A DNA stretch of 64,000 nt from Escherichia phage CMSTMSU: sequence record MH494197.1; one strand, written 5' to 3'. The notes beneath the pieces were generated by a model, which saw only the letters and a program-made list of their open reading frames with translations, searched no databases and was not told where the DNA came from. Below, piece after piece: positions 1,857-40,934 of this stretch (within the stretch, counting starts at the first letter, position 1; each line of letters starts with the position of its first letter). Made by a program: the position numbers and the translations under genes.

Positions 1857-2626
1857 TTAAATTTTCTCAAGGAACATGTTTTCTGCCATTGACTCCCAAT
1901 CATATGGAAATTTATTATACAGACCAGCGATCAGTACTGGCATACGCAGAGAAGGTGAACGCAGCTTTTCTTCGTTGTTCAGCATCCAGTTTAAGATAGC
2001 TTTACAACCATTTTTATTAACCCCATTGTTCTCAAGAATATTAGTCTTGTTCATGATGTTCTCAATGTGAATCATAACTTCTTCGTTAGTGAACAGTTGA
2101 AGATCAACAAAGATACTACGAGTAATCAGTGCATCAATGTGTGGTGCTAAACTGCTTTTACCTTTAGCAATCTGTGACAGGTTTTGTTCGTCAGGAAGAT
2201 TACCTTCCCACGGAATTCAAACTGCTTAGGAATACCCTGCTGTTCCGTACTTCCCAGAAGTTGCATAAGATACAACCCGCTTCTCTGACGTGTCCAACAC
2301 GGCTTTAAGTAAATCAATATTGGTTTCATCACTGAAGATATCAACGTCATCAAGTAACAGTACTGATGCGGCATGACGTGAACGATACAGTGCTTCGTAC
2401 AGACCCATAGTGGTTACTTTACCGCTGATCTTTTGTAGTCGATTTCAAAGTTATCATCAGCTTTCTGCAAACGCTGGTCAACGTTGTAAGTTTTTCCAAC
2501 ACCACCTTTACCAGATACAATCAGGGAATTGATTGAATTAGCTTGGGTATCAAGTAAACATTCCAAAGCTGCCATCATGCTGTTGAAGTTCTTTTCGATT
2601 TGGATTGCTTTCTCTGTACGGGTCAT
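1857..2626 (-). CDS. P-loop NTPase (AAA-type ATPase), frame-disrupted
   Basis: Walker A SGKGGVGKT, Walker B LLLDDVD, sensor-like VIFLTN; spread over ORFs 2414..2773, 2226..2408, 2147..2374, 1857..2075; true start MTRTEK near 2626. Confidence 0.6.
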
Positions 2627-2654
2627 GTCTTTATCCTCTTGAGTTGATGAAATG

Positions 2655-2690
2655 ATTATAGCAAAAGGGCTGACTAGTGTCAACCCTTTT
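2655..2690 (-). promoter_or_regulatory. hairpin-embedded sigma-70 promoter (terminator-promoter cassette)
   Basis: minus strand GGGTTGACacTAGTCAGCCCTTTTGCTATAAT, then GAGGA RBS and ATG of ATPase gene. Confidence 0.6.
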
Positions 2691-2813
2691 GTTTTAGATA
2701 ATTTGTACTTCATCATAGATCTTGCACGATTTGCTTTCCGGGTTATTTGTAAATTTATACCTAGTGGAATCAAGAATTATTTTAAATCTTCTTTCACATA
2801 GTACTCATATAAT

Positions 2814-3011
2814 TTAATTACTTTTGTATATTGAATCACATTGTCTACGCAATAGTTTATAGTATGCTTTACCACGAGGAAATAGTTTACGTGTATGTTC
2901 TCCTTTTCCCCACGGTCCTAAATATGTTTTACGCGTGTCGTGATTATTAAAGTTATTTGATACAGTTGATTTTGTACCAATCGGATCTTCCTTACTAAAA
3001 TAGATAGACAT
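2814..3011 (-). CDS. hypothetical protein
   Basis: 65-aa ORF, basic. Confidence 0.35.
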   Translation of the reverse strand: MSIYFSKEDPIGTKSTVSNNFNNHDTRKTYLGPWGKGEHTRKLFPRGKAYYKLLRRQCDSIYKSN

Positions 3012-3039
3012 TATAAAGTTCTCTCTTCACTAAGTTTTT

Positions 3040-3746
3040 GTATTAAACTATTTCGGTAGCTCCATACTTAAAGTAAATTTCCTTAATCATTTCAAGATTA
3101 TGGATGCTTGTAGTTTCAGACCAACCATCCTCCATCAATTCACGTTCAATAATACCTTTCGTATTATGGATTTTAATATTTTCAGTTTGAAACAGTTTCT
3201 TACATTCAGTTTCGGCAGCAATACAATCAACTGGATTTTCAAATTTAAAAGAGCTAATACGTTTTATATCATAATAACATTTTAAGTTTTGTTCATATTC
3301 ACGACGACCGAGGATTGTTTCAATTCCATATTTTAGCCCAATATATTCACCTGCATTACATATACCACTAATATATGCAATTTTTGATTGCGATGTGCCT
3401 TACGAGGATTGCCACATCCACGCAAATGTATAGATGGTGTTTGCCAGAATTCATCACCACTTTCTGGATCAATAATACACACATTAGTACGGGCATCAAT
3501 ATACTCTACTTTACTGTAATCATATTGTTCATCGTGAATTTCGTTAGCCCTGTTGATAAATTCATCAATTGACATTTTATTTTTCAGGCCAGTTGATATA
3601 TTAGCACGATCATTATTACCACATCCCATCAAATGTGATGATGGTGTTTGCCAGAATTCACCATATACTGGATCTATAATACATACCTTAGTACTGTTGT
3701 TTACGTATACGACCTTACTATAATCATACAGATTATCATGCACCAA
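3040..3746 (-). CDS. repeat-module protein (two YDYSKV...C-I-I-D-P-x-x-G-E-F-W-Q-T-P modules), frame-disrupted near 3330
   Basis: ORF 3333..3746 holds two ~60-aa internal repeats; reading continues in another frame to ~3040. Confidence 0.5.
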
Positions 3747-4615
3747 ATTGGCCTTCTCGATAAATTCATCAAGTGTTAAGCGTTTACTCTGTGCCGTTTT
3801 TCAAAACCACGGATTGGGTTTCCATGACCTTTCCAATGGTAGATTGGTTCTTGCCAGAATTCACCATATACTGGATCTACAATACATACCTTAGTCCATG
3901 CACCAGTATACTCCACTTTACTGTAGTCATATAAATGACCATGTACTGCACGAGAACGTTCAATAAAACTTCGTTGGTGAATGTTTTATTTACTGAAGTT
4001 CCTATACGCCCACGTTCCATGTTACCATGCTTGGATTTTAAATGGTCATATGGCGTTTGCCAGAATTCACCATACACTGGATCAATAATGCATACTGGAG
4101 TTTTACTATTAACATATTCTACGTTTGAATAATCGAACGTATTTCCAAAACGTTCGATAGCTTCAGCTATAAATGTTTCAGTTGTTTTTGATTTAAGTTT
4201 TTACCATTTTCAATGGCACGTTGTGGGCTACCTGCACCTTTTAAATGGGAGCTGGGTTCTTGCCAGAATTCACCATACACTGGATCAATAATACATACCT
4301 TAGTGCTATTATTTTTATAAACAACTTTACTATAATCATAGAGGTTGTTATGAACTTTTTCTGCTCGTTCTATAAACGTTTGGGTGGTTAATTTGCCAAC
4401 ACCTGAACGATATGGATTCCTGACCGCGAATGTGATGTGACGGAGTTTGCCAGAATTCACCATACACCGGATCAATAATGCATACTGGTTCTTTAGCTTT
4501 TACATACACTGCTTTTTCGTAATTATAGAGATCACCATGTACATTTCGTGCAGCAATTAAAAAGTTTCTTGGTCGGTAACACGCATTTTCTTTATCCCTA
4601 GTACGTTTCATTTCG
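3330..4615 (-). repeat. tandem array of at least 5 copies of a ~40-codon coding module
   Basis: motif YDYSKVVY..KVCIIDPVYGEFWQTPSSHL.G.G recurs in ORFs 3333..3746 (x2), 3877..4077, 4167..4475, 4348..4611 in different frames. Confidence 0.6.
4167..4611 (-). CDS. repeat-module paralogue(s), two overlapping frames
   Basis: ORFs 4167..4475 and 4348..4611 each carry one module; RBS and ATG at 4611. Confidence 0.4.
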
Positions 4616-4621
4616 ATAGAG

Positions 4622-4656
4622 CTATAATAGCAAAGGGCTGACCGAAGTCAACTCTT
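4622..4656 (-). promoter_or_regulatory. degenerate hairpin-promoter cassette
   Basis: TTGACTTCGGTCAGCCCTTTGCTATTATAG upstream of ATG at 4611. Confidence 0.45.
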
Positions 4657-4863
4657 TGATATGATAATATAATCATTCCATAAATTATATATATTGTTTT
4701 CAACACAATCATCATCGCTTAATTCTATAATTGACGAGATAAGTTCTGATAAGGTTTGTGTGTTCAAAACCGTATCACGATGTCTCAACCACCATTTCAT
4801 GGTGAGTGTTCGGATTTTGTACGGATTGTTTGAAAACTTGTATCTAGAAGTGTCAAGTATCAT
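4648..4863 (-). CDS. hypothetical protein
   Basis: 71-aa ORF. Confidence 0.35.
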   Translation of the reverse strand: MILDTSRYKFSNNPYKIRTLTMKWWLRHRDTVLNTQTLSELISSIIELSDDDCVENNIYNLWNDYIIISKS

Positions 4864-4875
4864 TTTAATCTCTAT

Positions 4876-5310
4876 TTACTTAATCATCTCGGTATAGTAC
4901 TCAGGTAACTCAACATCAGTAAATTTATACCACTTAGGCTTCATTTGGAGCTTCTCAATCAAGCGTTCACGAGACATTTTAATCTCTGAATCAGATGGTA
5001 CATAGTCCGCAAAACTCCGCAGGAAGCCGCTAATGTCGTTTAATTCAATGTTTTGAATCTTCATACCACGACGCAAACATTCGTTAACAATTTCAATATG
5101 ACGCTTCTGTAAGTACAATAACTTGTTGTAGAAGAATGTTACATGACCTGAACCTAACAGGTAAGTACTGTTAATTTTGAAATCACGTACACGCTTACGT
5201 GCTTGAACATGTTTTTGTACAGCACCAAATACACGTGGAAGTTCACGATATTCAGCCATCAGATGTTGGTCAGCAAGTTCTTTAACGTGTACTAAGTTAA
5301 TGCGGGTCAT
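4876..5310 (-). CDS. denV: pyrimidine dimer DNA glycosylase / endonuclease V
   Basis: [31 protein letters not shown]... closely matches T4 endonuclease V as recalled from memory; ATG at 5310 after GAGGATGAA RBS (track ORF starts at TTG 5367 and reads through the promoter hairpin). Confidence 0.85.
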
Positions 5311-5337
5311 GTATTCATCCTCTCGTCTTGATGAAAT

Positions 5338-5374
5338 AATTATAGCAAAAGGGCTGACCGAAGTCAACCCGTTT
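5338..5374 (-). promoter_or_regulatory. hairpin-embedded sigma-70 promoter
   Basis: GGGTTGACTTCGGTCAGCCCTTTTGCTATAAT: -35 TTGACT, 17-bp spacer, -10 TATAAT, UUCG tetraloop hairpin. Confidence 0.65.
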
Positions 5375-5720
5375 TGAAAGGATTTTTAATGGTTTTCGTA
5401 CTGTATGTATTTTGCTTTGTAGTTCTTCTTCCCACAAAACATTTATATTATAAACTAAATCATTGTAGTCACTGTTCACAAAGATAAAATCATACTTCTC
5501 ATTAAAAGTATGAGAAATCAATTTCATTTTCATAAGTATTATTGAACTTTTAAATTTATATGTTTCTTTTTCTTCTCCAGTTTTTGAACTTTGTATATTT
5601 TTATAAATTCCATGAATTCATCATTGGTCATTGTTTCAGCATCCAACAATACCCAACTTCACAATCTCATACCCGTCCAGATATCCGTAGGAACACTCAG
5701 GTGTTTCATAAGATGAACCA

Positions 5721-5972
5721 TCATAGATGCCCGCATTGGCTTTTGGAATTCTCAAGCAATCGTTGCAGTACTGATACGTCATCAAGAACGTAATACAAGT
5801 TAGCATATAAATCCGTTACAATACAGTACTCCAACATGTCAAATGTATCAATCGAAATTTCAACCTTAGCAAATCGTTTCTTTTCTTTATTATACAATGC
5901 GTACATATTAATCTCCATAATCAAGTTTAACCAACTTACCACACAGATACCCAAAGTTTTCTGGCTTCGCAT
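5721..5972 (-). CDS. hypothetical protein
   Basis: 83-aa ORF. Confidence 0.4.
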   Translation of the reverse strand: MRSQKTLGICVVSWLNLIMEINMYALYNKEKKRFAKVEISIDTFDMLEYCIVTDLYANLYYVLDDVSVLQRLLENSKSQCGHL

Positions 5973-6011
5973 CTGAATAGAAGAAGTCAGTACTCAACTC
6001 TGAATCCAATG

Positions 6012-6323
6012 CTAAAGCACACAACTCCACCCAAAATAAACCCTATGTTGTACTGGCTTACAACGTTTCTGTACAGTTACTAGTCCAGTACATGATGACC
6101 ACAACGTAGGGCAGATACCACTATCACTACGCTTGGAGTACTGCATCCAAGAACGTTCATTGAGGTTAGCTATCATCCCTGTTAAGAATAGCTTCCAACT
6201 TTTAAAGGTTGGAATCTTGATAGCATATTCCCCAATGAGTATGACAGTTCGTGTTGCACCTTTCAAATCTATATTCATATTTTTAATTAGAAGAACACAA
6301 ACCAAGTCCAGAATAAATTCCAC
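6012..6323 (-). CDS. hypothetical protein
   Basis: 103-aa ORF. Confidence 0.4.
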   Translation of the reverse strand: MEFILDLVCVLLIKNMNIDLKGATRTVILIGEYAIKIPTFKSWKLFLTGMIANLNERSWMQYSKRSDSGICPTLWSSCTGLVTVQKRCKPVQHRVYFGWSCVL

Positions 6324-6538
6324 ACTACAAATAAAGACATAGTGGTTTTATGTACAATATCAGCAGTACTGGTCCATCCTCCACCGTGTCCTATTCCATT
6401 TATGAATAGAACTAAGAACAAGATACCATTTACTACAATAGTACATAGTAAGTACACAAACACATTCCATGCAAGTTCAGGAGATACTAACGTAAATGGT
6501 AAAACAATTAGTAGTATTAGAACTAATAAAATTTTCAT
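6287..6538 (-). CDS. small membrane protein
   Basis: 83-aa hydrophobic ORF. Confidence 0.4.
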   Translation of the reverse strand: MKILLVLILLIVLPFTLVSPELAWNVFVYLLCTIVVNGILFLVLFINGIGHGGGWTSTADIVHKTTMSLFVVWNLFWTWFVFF

Positions 6539-6569
6539 TTATCGCCTCACTTAATTAACGTGACAATTA

Positions 6570-6746
6570 GTACGAATCAGATTCCCAGTACTCGATTGCT
6601 TCTTTCAGCAATTCTTTAGCACGTTGTTTTGCAATGCGAGCGGGTAACAGATATGTGTACATTAACTGACGCTTCACTTCATTCAGTGAAAGCTGTTCAT
6701 GGTACAGTGCATCCATCAGTCGATTACGAGTACGTAGTTTCATATA
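6570..6746 (-). CDS. small basic protein (58 aa)
   Basis: hand translation MKLRTRNRLMDALYHEQLS...; below track size cutoff. Confidence 0.35.
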
Positions 6747-10502: not shown

Positions 10503-10849
10503 AAATGTTTATTTTTATCTTTTCCAACACCACGGTCGTACTCTTTGAATGAGTTATCAAGTGTAGTTAGTGCATACTCATATGCTTCTGGTGATTCAAT
10601 GTCAACATCATCTGCACCATTTACTAAATCAGCCCACGCCTTTTGAAGTTTACGAGCATTGTTACCAACATTATCTTTAATCCAACTAATGTTTTGTTGA
10701 TACTTTTACTATCAGCACCTGCTTTTTACCAATCTCGGATATCCACATCATTAGCTTTTGAAGTTCATGAATTGATTTATCGGTCATTTCAAGATGTTCT
10801 TCTTCCATACCTTCGGAATCAGATGAACTAACGTCAATTCCATGTTTAG

Positions 10850-11955
10850 CTAATAGTTTACCAAGTTCAAAGAATGCAGCTTCAGCAGGAAGTCATAACC
10901 TTTCTCTTTGTAGTTATTCCATGCACTATCAAACTCGTCAACAAAACGGTTAGCATAATCTGGATTTTTAACTAATGCTTTATATACTGCCATTGCATGT
11001 TCAAAACCTTCTTTATCTGACCCAAACTCTTCCATCTCAGGACGATGAATGTATCCATCCATATCAACGGTATCAGGTAGATCTTCTTGCTCAGGCTCAA
11101 CATCTTTCTGTTCAACTGCACCTTCTTCATCTGCACGCTTTAGATAACCATCTGGTGTTACCTTCTCACCATGTTCGGCTTCATACTTTTTCATAGTGTT
11201 GAATGCAGCATCCATAGCTGTTACGAAGCGACTTTTCTCACCTTGTACATAAGATTTAAGTGCACTGTTAACTGCATCTGATACGAGCTTAACCTTATCG
11301 TCTTTACCTTCTAAACGGTTTTCAAGTTTAGCCAGTACATTCTTGACTTGCTGGGCATTAGCACGGTCTGCTTTACCAATACTATCAAAAGTTTTAAGAA
11401 TACCATCAAGACTTGCTTCACCCTGTTCAGGTTCTTTGGAATCTTCTTTGTGTGTACCTTCAAGTGCACGCATGATAGTACTGAATACTTCAGTAGGTTC
11501 AGTGCTCTTATTACCTTTCATTGCATCAAGTACAGCTTGTGCTTTACCTTTGAGTTCTTCTTTAGGAACTGCCTGTAGTGCTTTGACAATACCCTGAATC
11601 AACTGTGGTTTGTTAGCAAAGATCTTACCTAAGTTATCAGATAACTCTTTAACAGGGTTAGCTGCTTTAGGAGCTTCTGGTTTTGGTTCTTCTTTAGGAA
11701 CTGCTTGTTCTTTCTCAGCACGTTCCATATCAGCAAGGCGTTGTTTCTGTGTTGCGTTAAGAAGACCTAATGAGTTAACATAACGTAGCTTTTCTAGCTC
11801 AGTCATGTTCTCAGTACTCTTAACTTCACCTGCTTCTGCGTTTGCCTTACCAGCTAAACCTGTCCCTTGATTACGTGAACCACGTGACCCTGTCCTGCTT
11901 GGTAGCTATTTTGACGACGATTGCGTTCACTCCATTTATCAGAGTGACCTGCCAT
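10850..11955 (-). CDS. acidic charged protein (318 aa core), N-terminal extension frame-ambiguous
   Basis: intact ORF 10850..11806; Gly/Ser-rich upstream reading in two other frames (11807-11955) suggests a disrupted N-terminus. Confidence 0.6.
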
Positions 11956-12034
11956 GTTCCCGCCATTTTTATCAGTAAATTGACGGCATTTGATTTCTCT
12001 CCATAGATTTCATATTGTTTATTCTCTATGACTA

Positions 12035-24517: not shown

Positions 24518-25480
24518 TTAAAAATCTTCGAACTCGTAACCTTGCATCTTCACCATCTTACGCAGTCGTTCCATTGCTTCAGAGTACTTACGGTGCAATG
24601 AAGAACGAGCAGTCATGACCTTACCCTTCTCATCTTCAAAACCACTCTCAATGATTTCTCGTAGCGTTTCTGGTTCAGAATAAGAACCAATACCATGTAC
24701 ACGTTCAATCAATTCACGGTCTTTGGCAGATAGGTTACTCATCATTTCTGCAATACTTTGTACCAGTGGGTACTGACAGTTTCTACGCCTAAGTTGTAAT
24801 CAGGTTCAACTGAAGTAACAATGTCAGATAATGTACTTTCTGAATCATTACTCATTTTCATATTCAATGCTACATAAGTGTTATTGTAAGTTAGACAATT
24901 CTTAACGTGTTGAATCTCAATACCAGTCTCTTTTGACACCATCTCAGGAGTTGGGTATTTACCATGTTTCCTTTGATACTCTTCTACACAACGTTTCACA
25001 TAAATGTTATTAACACTCATATAACGTGGGAAATGCACTAGATAATTAGCATCTGCACTTTCGTTATAGATTGTCATGTACACAGTTGTTGTTGCATATG
25101 TAATGAACTTAACATTTTGGTAGTGTCGAACGTATGAATTGCTCGCATTAAACCTTCAACACCATAAGAAATCTTATCTTCAAATGGGATGAAACATGTA
25201 CACTTACGTGCAACACTTACTACCATTGGATAGTTGTAGCGAACCAAAAGGTCAATATTCTTTTCAACGTCAATACCATCACGCACTGCTTGGATGAGCA
25301 TTTCATTCGTTATCCCTTTAGGGCGAGTTAAGCTGATACCTGTTTTGGTTTCTCAAACTTGTGACCGTCATGTTCTTCTTCTTCGACGGAATCAAGAGCC
25401 TCTAATACGTTGACTTCTTCACTAGCAAAACACTCATCCAGTACTTCTTCAGAAATTGCATTTAAATCAAGCTTTTTCAC
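24518..25480 (-). CDS. sigma-70-family RNA polymerase sigma factor, frame-disrupted
   Basis: region 2-like NYPMVVSVARK...EDKISYGVEGLMRAIHTFD (ORF 25074..25301), region 3-like YPTPEMVSKETGIEIQHV (24742..25083), region 4-like SAKDRELIERVHGIG...TLREI...RKYSEAMERLRK (24518..24745). Confidence 0.65.
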
Positions 25481-31404: not shown

Positions 31405-31439
31405 TTATCTATATCTTATTTGAAGTTTTACGTAGAACT

Positions 31440-32126
31440 TCTTCCAGTGTTTGTTCTGGATTAGCAATTGCAACAGTGTAAATCAAATCTTTGAATGCCT
31501 GTACTGCTTGCTCAGTTGCTTCTTTACCGAAGTTAGCTGAAATACTGCTAAACATATTTTCAGCACGTTCAGAACTAATTAGTTCATTAACAAAGGTATC
31601 AATCTCTTTTTGAGTTGACCAGTGGTCATGTCACCAATTAGCATTTCATCAACTTCTGGCTTTTCATCAGTACTAACACGTACATTTGTAAAACCAAATA
31701 CATCATCCAGTGAACCAAAACTATGTTTAACTTTAGTAACAATAGATGGCTTAGTGCGTTCTACTGGTTCTTCTTGTTTCTCTTCAGAATCAGTACTTGA
31801 TTCGTATGGCTTGTGAACATATGAGTGAGAACGTCATCAATGTTTTTAATCATACCTTCAACACGTTCTTCAGTTTTCTTAGTAACTTCTTTGAATGCTT
31901 GCTCAAGTAGACGATCTTGAACTGTAGTACGTACATCACCAACAACACCACGTAATTTTTCATTACACTGGTCTAGAATTGATAATAGTTCACCACTTTT
32001 AATTTTGTCAACCAATAAATCAAGGTCAGATTTAACTTCAGGTTTCTTCTCAATACCATTTAGTAAGCTGTTAAGCTCTTGAGCACCCTCAATCGCTTCT
32101 TGATGACTGGTAAATTGAACAGGCAC
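31440..32126 (-). CDS. hypothetical protein, frame-disrupted at C-terminus
   Basis: ORF 31761..32126 (121 aa); reading continues in another frame toward ~31440. Confidence 0.4.
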
Positions 32127-32238
32127 ATCAACACCATCTAGAACGATATTGAGTACTTTACCATCTACATAAGCGTAAGAGTAAGATTCTTTTTGAAGGA
32201 AATGGTTTTGAAGAAAATGTTGCTCATATTGTTACTCC

Positions 32239-36565: not shown

Positions 36566-36697
36566 ATCGTCATCATAGCAAAAACTCTAACTTCACCAAT
36601 ATCTTTTAATTGTACATCATGTAGTGACCATGCGTTGTTTTTAATACGTAGTTCACCATTTTAACAATGTTGTATTTCATAGTGTACCTTTATTTTG

Positions 36698-36770
<73 letters not shown>

Positions 36771-36773
36771 TGA

Positions 36774-36856
<83 letters not shown>

Positions 36857-36907
36857 AGAAGTAAGATAACCAACAAGTCTCCATACTCTTTCGCATTGAG
36901 GGGAGGC

Positions 36908-36968
<61 letters not shown>

Positions 36969-37020
36969 GCCAAGTGTCGGCATAGGTGCAGCACTATAAA
37001 GTTCTTCAAGCTGTTTGGCA

Positions 37021-37110
<90 letters not shown>

Positions 37111-37112
37111 TA

Positions 37113-37237
<125 letters not shown>

Positions 37238-37256
37238 GCATACTCGAAGTACCTCT

Positions 37257-37294
<38 letters not shown>

Positions 37295-37313
37295 AACTGA
37301 ATACTTACATCCC

Positions 37314-37348
<35 letters not shown>

Positions 37349-37400
37349 ATAGGCACACACGGAACTGCTTTATAAGCTACTGAATCGGGAATCACAACCT

Positions 37401-37660
<260 letters not shown>

Positions 37661-37724
37661 TAATACCCGCTAGTAGTTTAAGTCTGCGGCGTTGAAGACA
37701 CCAAGTGAAGTCTTACCACGTAGT

Positions 37725-37964
37725 TTAGGTGAAATGACATATTTTGTCAATTTCTTTTACCGTACCAGTGATTGAATTCGTCTTCAGTAACATGTGGGTT
37801 CTGGAAATCGTATTCACGTTTCTTATGAAGTTTTTAGCTTGTTCTGCAATCTTAGTTCGTTGATCTTCTGGAATGTCGAATGTATTGTTACGTTTGCACC
37901 ATTCGTGCACTAATGCTTCCAGAAGGAACTGTTCAGTTTCTTTGACTAGAGTGATTTTAGTCAA
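37725..37964 (-). CDS. hypothetical protein
   Basis: 79-aa ORF. Confidence 0.4.
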   Translation of the reverse strand: MTKITLVKETEQFLLEALVHEWCKRNNTFDIPEDQRTKIAEQAKNFIRNVNTISRTHMLLKTNSITGTVKEIDKICHFT

Positions 37965-38075
37965 GCCTTTTCGATGTTCATATAATCATCGACATATCCA
38001 TTCCAAATAACAATCTCTGGATTGCCGTCAATCTCTTGAAGCATTTTGATCAAGTCATTCTTTTCATTTAAATTC

Positions 38076-38321
<246 letters not shown>

Positions 38322-38341
38322 AAGTATGCCATATTTGTTTC

Positions 38342-38527
38342 CTATGAAATGAATGTAGCGTTAATTCCCATTATAAATGCAAATATACCAAACAATATCA
38401 GACCGATTGGTACAAAGATCATAGATCTATTTCCATGTTTCGATAAAAATCGTTCAACTGTAATTAAACGTATTGATATCGGAACCATTATAATAATATA
38501 CAATATTGAAAGAATTAAAAGTTGCAT
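38342..38527 (-). CDS. small membrane protein
   Basis: 61-aa hydrophobic ORF. Confidence 0.4.
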   Translation of the reverse strand: MQLLILSILYIIIMVPISIRLITVERFLSKHGNRSMIFVPIGLILFGIFAFIMGINATFIS

Positions 38528-38556
38528 TTTAATTTCCTATTGTAATTTCGTTTTTG

Positions 38557-39352
<796 letters not shown>

Positions 39353-39711
39353 TCACCAACTTTAATTAAAAAATGGATGGTGACGCTTTTAAACGCCGCT
39401 GTTAATTCAGCTTTATAACCACCGTTTTAACTTGCCTTTCGGCTACCTTGACGTGGTGCGTACAGGCTACTAAAAGCAACTACTGTAAACATATTTCCAC
39501 GCCTTACCCTTTTAAATAAAAGTCCATCCGGTTTTCCAGTTTGGTGAAGGATAGTCACCTCTAGTTTAAACCTGCTAGTCAAGTAATAATTGCCTATCGT
39601 CCAATTATCAAACCCGTCTAGGTTAACATTCACCACTTCCTAGAGTACCAGAGATCTTGTTCTGGATTGCATCGACGTAACTTACACCATATACGTCTGA
39701 TTGTGGAATTC

Positions 39712-39745
<34 letters not shown>

Positions 39746-39805
39746 TTTACAAATCTGGACGTTCATCTTTAAACATATTAATCTCCTTGGTACTGAACTA
39801 TTTAT

Positions 39806-40218
<413 letters not shown>

Positions 40219-40235
40219 CTTTTTATTCATCGGTA

Positions 40236-40273
<38 letters not shown>

Positions 40274-40287
40274 TTAAATATGCTTTG

Positions 40288-40322
<35 letters not shown>

Positions 40323-40387
40323 AGAATCTAATGGTAGATAATAAGGATTCCACTTTATTTTTGGCGTTTCATCCACTCTTCATGTGT

Positions 40388-40557
40388 CATATTCGTACCA
40401 GTAGTTCAATTAAGTACATTTCATATGCTGGATCGTTGATAAGTTTATCATACAGATGTGGCTCTGAAATGAATTCCCAATGATACTTTAGCCATTTACC
40501 GATACCCGAATATCTAAAATTAATATCATTCATCCATTCTTCATGTGTCATTTTCGT

Positions 40558-40561
<4 letters not shown>
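40388..40561 (-). CDS. MTHEEW-family small protein, copy B (~55 aa)
   Basis: hand translation MTHEEWMNDINFRYSGIGKWLKYHWEFISEP...; stop overlaps ATG of a truncated third copy. Confidence 0.4.
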
Positions 40562-40712
<151 letters not shown>

Positions 40713-40735
40713 GGTTTAACCTTTAATTAAAATTG

Positions 40736-40814
<79 letters not shown>

Positions 40815-40818
40815 ATTT

Positions 40819-40934
<116 letters not shown>

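Follow-up and report, generated by a model that had tools for sequence, protein, structure and literature searches.

A probable homing-endonuclease-type gene of an Asteriusvirus-like jumbo coliphage, with six tandem modules and frames split at homopolymers

How does a tandem array of protein modules come to be spread over several overlapping frames of a phage genome? The question is raised by positions 3040-4615 of a 64,000-nucleotide (nt) stretch of Escherichia phage CMSTMSU (sequence record MH494197.1); this whole stretch is referred to as the window. An original prediction had described at least five head-to-tail copies of a module of about 40 codons, explained either by recent duplication with frame decay or by the mis-splitting of a multi-module protein through indels, and had regarded the module as a small metal-binding or nucleic-acid-binding domain. 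The analysis points to one homing-endonuclease-type gene of an Asteriusvirus-like jumbo coliphage, the frames of which were split by the under-calling of homopolymers. The probability of this reading is estimated to be roughly 0.85. We infer that the gene product binds and cleaves DNA, that it takes part in homing, and that its modules have lost zinc binding.

The array is real and is periodic at the DNA level. A repeat search revealed six copies of a 113-nt core, at 3427, 3631, 3834, 4040, 4243, and 4430, with spacings of 204, 203, 206, 203, and 187 nt and 60-80% identity to the reference copy. The six modules follow one another head to tail, all on the minus strand; their period is 187-206 nt (63-69 codons), and each repeat unit is composed of a helix and a linker followed by a conserved core of about 40 codons. 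The module length given originally holds for this core and falls short of the full unit. In a three-frame translation, six copies of the motif (Y/F)(D/N)Y(S/E)(K/N)(V/A)..Y.....VCI(I/V)DP..G(D)EFWQ.P..H were distributed over all three minus-strand frames. Two modules (5 and 6) share a single open reading frame (ORF) of 137 residues, 3333-3746, and the other copies lie in overlapping frames, both as had been noticed. When an intact homologue was compared with the window using tblastn, the modules matched one another with expectation values (E) of 1e-10 to 1e-65, and no further copy was found elsewhere in the 64 kb. The array was not detected in this region by Tandem Repeats Finder because the DNA copies are too diverged. 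Pairwise identity between modules is 42-66% for protein, 50-66% for DNA, and 31-60% at third codon positions. Given such low identity, the duplication is old, with conservation maintained by selection at the level of the protein, and the idea that it is recent is therefore rejected.

The state of the frames becomes clear from comparison with intact relatives. The nearest public sequence is that of Escherichia phage WPEC3, a 384-kb Asteriusvirus-like jumbo phage with 99.5% DNA identity over window positions 2900-4900. In WPEC3, a single coding sequence (CDS) of 1551 nt (CDS125), annotated as an 'endonuclease', spans the whole array. Base-by-base alignment of 2900-4900 revealed 2 substitutions and 9 bases missing from the window, all in homopolymer runs; inside the gene, 7 bases are missing at six sites, all of them homopolymer runs as well. 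At 3380, a run is 5 long in the window and 6 long in WPEC3 and in a 354-kb ENA metagenome contig (L004), and the frame breaks between module 6 and the nuclease domain. Runs of 5 instead of 6 break the frame between modules 4 and 5 (3796) and between modules 2 and 3 (4197), a run of 4 instead of 5 breaks it at the start of module 4 (3964), and a C/G run of 2 instead of 4, with two bases missing, breaks it at the end of module 1 (4418). The last site, near the 5' end (4558, 5 versus 6), puts a false upstream start at 4611 seemingly in frame. The metagenome contig encodes the same intact protein of 516 residues (P0001) and agrees with WPEC3 at 6 of the 6 sites. After the missing bases are restored, the protein of the window differs from that of WPEC3 at one residue. 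Hence the mis-splitting of a multi-module protein by indels, the second of the two explanations first offered, is borne out: wherever the frame breaks, the window has a homopolymer that is shorter than in both of the independent intact relatives. The split frames are an assembly artefact, and the true gene lies at 3043-4586 on the minus strand. It is 1544 nt long in the window, where it appears as ORF fragments in three frames, compared with 1551 nt in the intact relatives. Separately, the BFVD entry A0A2Z5HHL4, a viral UniProt protein of 136 residues, is 98% identical to part of the gene and about the size of the 137-residue ORF, which suggests a deposited genome in which the gene is annotated in pieces.

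The restored gene would encode six DNA-binding modules followed by a C-terminal nuclease domain, so that tandem modules and nuclease are fused in one chain. On the minus strand, module 1 (residues 1-64) occupies 4398-4586, module 2 (65-132) 4195-4397, module 3 (133-200) 3991-4194, module 4 (201-269) 3786-3990, module 5 (270-337) 3582-3785, and module 6 (338-402) 3387-3581. The nuclease domain (residues 403-516), with a GIY-YIG fold and a T5orf172/MUG113-like sequence, is located at 3046-3386.

What kind of module is it? A phmmer search with the full protein returned more than 7900 relatives (best E 4.5e-284; 40-50% identity over 76% of the protein), and nearly all of the best ones carry precomputed matches to PF05265 (DUF723) and PF14311 (DUF4379, 'probable treble clef zinc finger'). 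For P0001, an unmarked PF05265 match at E<=1e-5 is likewise among the precomputed ones, and PHROG 681, 'endonuclease', is matched with an E value of 2.7e-63. With a local copy of Pfam, the full protein gave no match to PF05265.19, PF14311.12, or PF21817.3 at E<=10, and other zinc-less relatives likewise gave no match to the local module models; the same copy recognized DUF4379 (6e-28) and DUF723 (2e-19) in the canonical relative P0003. In the AlphaFold2 model, each module consists of a 12-residue helix, a beta-hairpin, and a short helix, with a predicted local distance difference test score (pLDDT) above 90. The 211 structure matches in BFVD at E<=0.001 are to phage and giant-virus proteins named as zinc-ribbon, CapR-homology, T5orf172, or GIY-YIG proteins. 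Related places in the phage collection (1949 in 588 records) are annotated as endonuclease, homing endonuclease, or DUF723/DUF4379 protein. The modules are homologues of the treble-clef DNA-binding modules (CapR/DUF723/DUF4379) that occur in phage homing endonucleases, and this homology lends support to the earlier suggestion of a nucleic-acid-binding domain.

Several other matches were set aside. Pfam matches of the ORF fragments and the full protein, such as those to PNP_phzG_C and Colicin_D, were all spurious, driven by low complexity or by repeats, with 0 matched stretches, and Peptidase_C58 in relatives is a spurious match of the same kind. NCBIfam gave no match. PDB sequence searches with the protein and with the nuclease-domain profile produced TUP1 (E 0.15), which was rejected, and otherwise no meaningful match. 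A Foldseek comparison of the whole-chain model with the PDB gave no match at E<=0.001, as is expected because the chain is flexible and multi-domain.

The nuclease domain is more divergent. Residues 403-516 had no direct Pfam match at E<=1 or E<=0.1, and a word-indexed protein search with this domain alone found 1 relative only. An exhaustive search with profile hidden Markov models collected 489 cluster representatives, in which the domain is always C-terminal, and the family profile recovers the domain of the gene at E 1.3e-51. The N-terminal parts of the relatives in this nuclease family contain CapR (58 of 85), DUF723 (19), and DUF4379 (13). When 60 C-terminal segments were isolated, MUG113 (PF13455) was matched in 24 (best E 1.6e-5) and T5orf172 (PF10544) in 20 (best E 9.4e-4); both families belong to the GIY-YIG superfamily. 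The domain displays the beta-beta-alpha-beta-alpha core of the GIY-YIG fold. Eight positions are invariant across the 489 representatives: Y407, K421, G423, R431, E461, D489, G490, and E493. Y407, R431, and E461 are situated in strand 1, helix 1, and helix 2, respectively, the elements expected to carry the catalytic Tyr, Arg, and Glu; the correspondence is at the level of secondary structure. The nuclease-family profile aligned in register with the GIY-YIG-like tail of P0020 in hhalign, with a non-significant E value of 0.14. Taken together, the C-terminal 114 residues form a domain of GIY-YIG fold that is T5orf172/MUG113-like but divergent, and the invariant residues are consistent with an active GIY-YIG-type site, in which they would be equivalent to the catalytic residues.

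Do the modules bind metal? The consensus of the relatives reads ...YDYSKV.Y....TKVCIICPEHGEFWQ.P..HL.G.GCPKC, and the canonical zinc ligands are a C-x2-H or C-x2-C knuckle plus a C-x2-C pair. The ligands C, H, C, and C are present in 781 of 939 sampled modules. In the six modules of the gene, D stands in place of the second Cys of 'CIIC', and N/S and R/K in place of the 'CPKC' pair; the His of 'EHG' has given way to Y in modules 1-5 and to S in module 6. The Cys of VCII, to which the original prediction had drawn attention, falls in a column where members of the family have C, T, I, K, or L; since the column is variable, this Cys is a core residue and not a ligand. Metal binding by the modules is thus unlikely, and the part of the prediction that proposed it is not upheld; the modules are probably metal-free.

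The same D/Y(F)/N(H,S)/R pattern is shared by P0064, P0037, P0121, P0020, most of P0002, and the allele of the phage Turkey3, which form a coherent subgroup. The pattern accounts for 126 of the 939 modules in a sample that is biased towards the query, and within this biased sample, wholly ligand-less proteins pair only with GIY-YIG-type tails. It may be that the modules represent a zinc-independent lineage of the CapR/DUF723/DUF4379 treble clef that still serves as the DNA-reading array of active endonucleases, with the ligands replaced by the conserved D/Y(F)/N(H,S)/R set; the odds for and against this proposal are judged to be even. The set could perhaps provide a salt bridge and hydrogen bonds that hold the module fold. 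If so, it would be a natural conversion of a zinc finger into a metal-free fold and a compact modular scaffold for the recognition of long targets. The only mildly new point here is that the DNA-binding modules of the gene have lost all zinc ligands and yet are under purifying selection.

Proteins of this design are known. T5orf172 homing endonucleases regularly bear repeated CapR/DUF723/DUF4379 DNA-binding domains, and their degenerate intragenic repeats recombine (Barth et al. 2023, PMC10448857). Like the gene described here, they have (for example, in ICP1 gp174; PMC10448857) an N-terminal string of related modules of about 60 residues, the DNA repeats of which are degenerate, and a C-terminal domain that is of the T5orf172/MUG113 type and belongs to the GIY-YIG superfamily; the genes are free-standing, lie at the boundaries of variable regions, and have several paralogues per genome. 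The present gene differs in that its modules lack all four zinc ligands, its six modules are at the high end, and the sequence of its nuclease domain, taken by itself, does not reach the Pfam thresholds for T5orf172/MUG113. The architecture was already described in 2023, and the gene is an uncharacterised member of this known modular class of phage homing endonucleases. CapR of the Vibrio cholerae PLE satellites has a homologous module for which DNA binding was shown experimentally (PMC8096241); in this module family, sequence-specific binding is known for CapR alone. However, CapR is a repressor with a single module and no nuclease domain, and the four cysteines of its CxxC...CxC zinc site are required for binding (PMC8096241).

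Similar module arrays are combined with Vsr/EDxHD-like nucleases in phage group II introns (PMC12350094). DUF4379/DUF723 fusions to such PD-(D/E)xK enzymes, to which most of the top phmmer matches also belong, share the module family, arranged as 'beads on a string' of 3-10 modules, but their catalytic domain is another one (consensus ...LDF.LP.....IE..G.QH...) and their modules are canonical, with the zinc ligands retained. The GIY-YIG homing endonucleases I-TevI and Seg of T4 resemble the gene in having a GIY-YIG-fold nuclease tethered to a modular DNA-binding region and in being encoded by free-standing or intron-borne phage genes. In I-TevI, the order is reversed and the nuclease is N-terminal; the NUMOD-type DNA-binding modules of I-TevI and Seg (helix-turn-helix, minor-groove helix, and zinc finger as linker) are unrelated.

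Mobility is indicated by the locus itself. WPEC3 and the metagenome contig carry the same allele as the window. At the same site, Turkey3 and WPEC5 have a diverged five-module allele (L006 3684-4982 and L005 3599-4982, both on the minus strand), which is also ligand-less and has the same nuclease type; it encodes 432 residues in Turkey3 and appears as two overlapping CDSs with internal deletions in WPEC5. The upstream flank of these two phages, including the promoter, is 92% identical up to 13 nt before the ATG. In TH47, the gene is absent from the site, and a full-length homologue with 34% identity is found across denV (L002 ~5104-6597, minus strand). Among close relatives with conserved flanks, the gene is therefore sporadic and its alleles are replaced. 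No clean empty site was found, TH47 having the flanking small ORFs but in rearranged order, and no target sequence was found. Directly upstream of denV, WPEC3 has an HNH endonuclease gene (CDS128, L003 5651-6064) that the window lacks; window positions 5375-5641 (266 nt) align instead to TH47 (L002 3658-3975, 90%). The family of the module gene is represented at 5 places in WPEC3. Allele replacement, the absence in TH47, and the HNH polymorphism make the denV neighbourhood a hot spot of endonuclease genes, which agrees with what is expected of homing endonuclease genes where exchange has its boundaries. The string of modules would read a long DNA target and position the nuclease to cut a phage genome without the allele, and recombinational repair during co-infection would copy the gene together with its flanks. 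In this sense, it is one more member of a large modular homing endonuclease class that marks recombination boundaries.

Could the gene be intact and serve the phage in another way? It might have been domesticated as a CapR-like DNA-binding regulator or as an Odn-like nuclease directed against competitors or satellites, and precedents for both roles exist (PMC8096241, PMC10448857). The near identity (98%) of the allele in three genomes and an early-type promoter of its own, recognized as a consensus match only, would suit such a function. However, the residues that are invariant in the family, including the Tyr, Arg, and Glu positions expected of a GIY-YIG-type site, are all kept, and allele replacement together with presence and absence at the locus is typical of mobile endonuclease genes. 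For this reason, domestication is considered unlikely.

A true pseudogene, that is, a homing endonuclease gene that degenerated through real frameshifts after fixation, is considerably less probable. Decay is common among homing endonuclease genes, and the annotation of the WPEC5 allele as two CDSs would fit it. Nevertheless, 7 bases are missing from the gene with only 2 substitutions relative to WPEC3, every break is in a homopolymer, and the same deletion bias extends through the window. In a 46-kb alignment with WPEC3, the window is the side that lacks bases in 220 gap events and WPEC3 in 9; 167 of the 220 are in homopolymers, most of which are 5-6 long (A or T) or 3-4 long (C or G) in WPEC3. 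The density of deletion-type errors relative to WPEC3 is about 1 per 210 nt window-wide (examples are seen at 2181, 2246, 2430, 5008, 10511-11984, 24767-25342, 30479, and 31425-32189), and errors of similar density affect all of the genes checked, among them four virion structural genes, a sigma-factor gene, and denV. A viable phage could not bear such a load, and the overlapping frames therefore reflect homopolymer under-calling and not decay. The recent duplication with frame decay that had been proposed fails on this point too, since the frameshift density in the gene is the window average and essential genes are affected. The idea that each fragment is a small gene of its own, or that programmed ribosomal frameshifting links the fragments, can practically be dismissed: possible start codons open several of them, but six shifts of mixed sign would be needed, relatives with 99.5% DNA identity have one continuous ORF, and fragment ends fall inside modules.

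The main value of the single homing-endonuclease-type gene split by under-calling is practical. The ORF structure of the window is unreliable throughout, and oddities at the ORF level (overlapping frames, split genes, 'decay') should be treated as artefacts until the sequence is polished. An example is a gene of 257 residues in relatives, ATP-binding or FleQ-like, which appears as three overlapping ORF fragments at 2147-2773 (minus strand) because four bases are missing at 2181, 2246 (two bases), and 2430.

Further features were observed around the gene and elsewhere in the window. Six tRNA genes are located at 36697-40908 (minus strand), namely two adjacent tRNA-Thr(tgt), Asn(gtt), Met(cat), Ser(gct), and Ser(tga), and the WPEC3 counterpart of this cluster contains an HNH/NUMOD4 endonuclease gene among the tRNAs. 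Upstream of the module gene, a sigma-70-like promoter (TTGACT, 16-nt spacer, TG-TATTAT; a consensus match only) is predicted at 4624-4651 on the minus strand. The distance from the end of its -10 hexamer to the ATG is 38 nt, and the promoter overlaps a short hairpin; WPEC3 has a spacer of 17 nt, and the window one of 16 nt because a base is missing at 4631. An intergenic element of this kind, in which a short GC hairpin (GGGTTGAC-TTCG-GTCAGCCC) occurs together with a sigma-70 promoter close to the consensus (TTGACA/T, spacer of 16-17 nt, TG-TATAAT), is repeated at 2655-2693, 4624-4657, and 5339-5375 (minus strand). More copies are present in the related loci L002, L005, and L006, and the element probably constitutes a family of early promoters.
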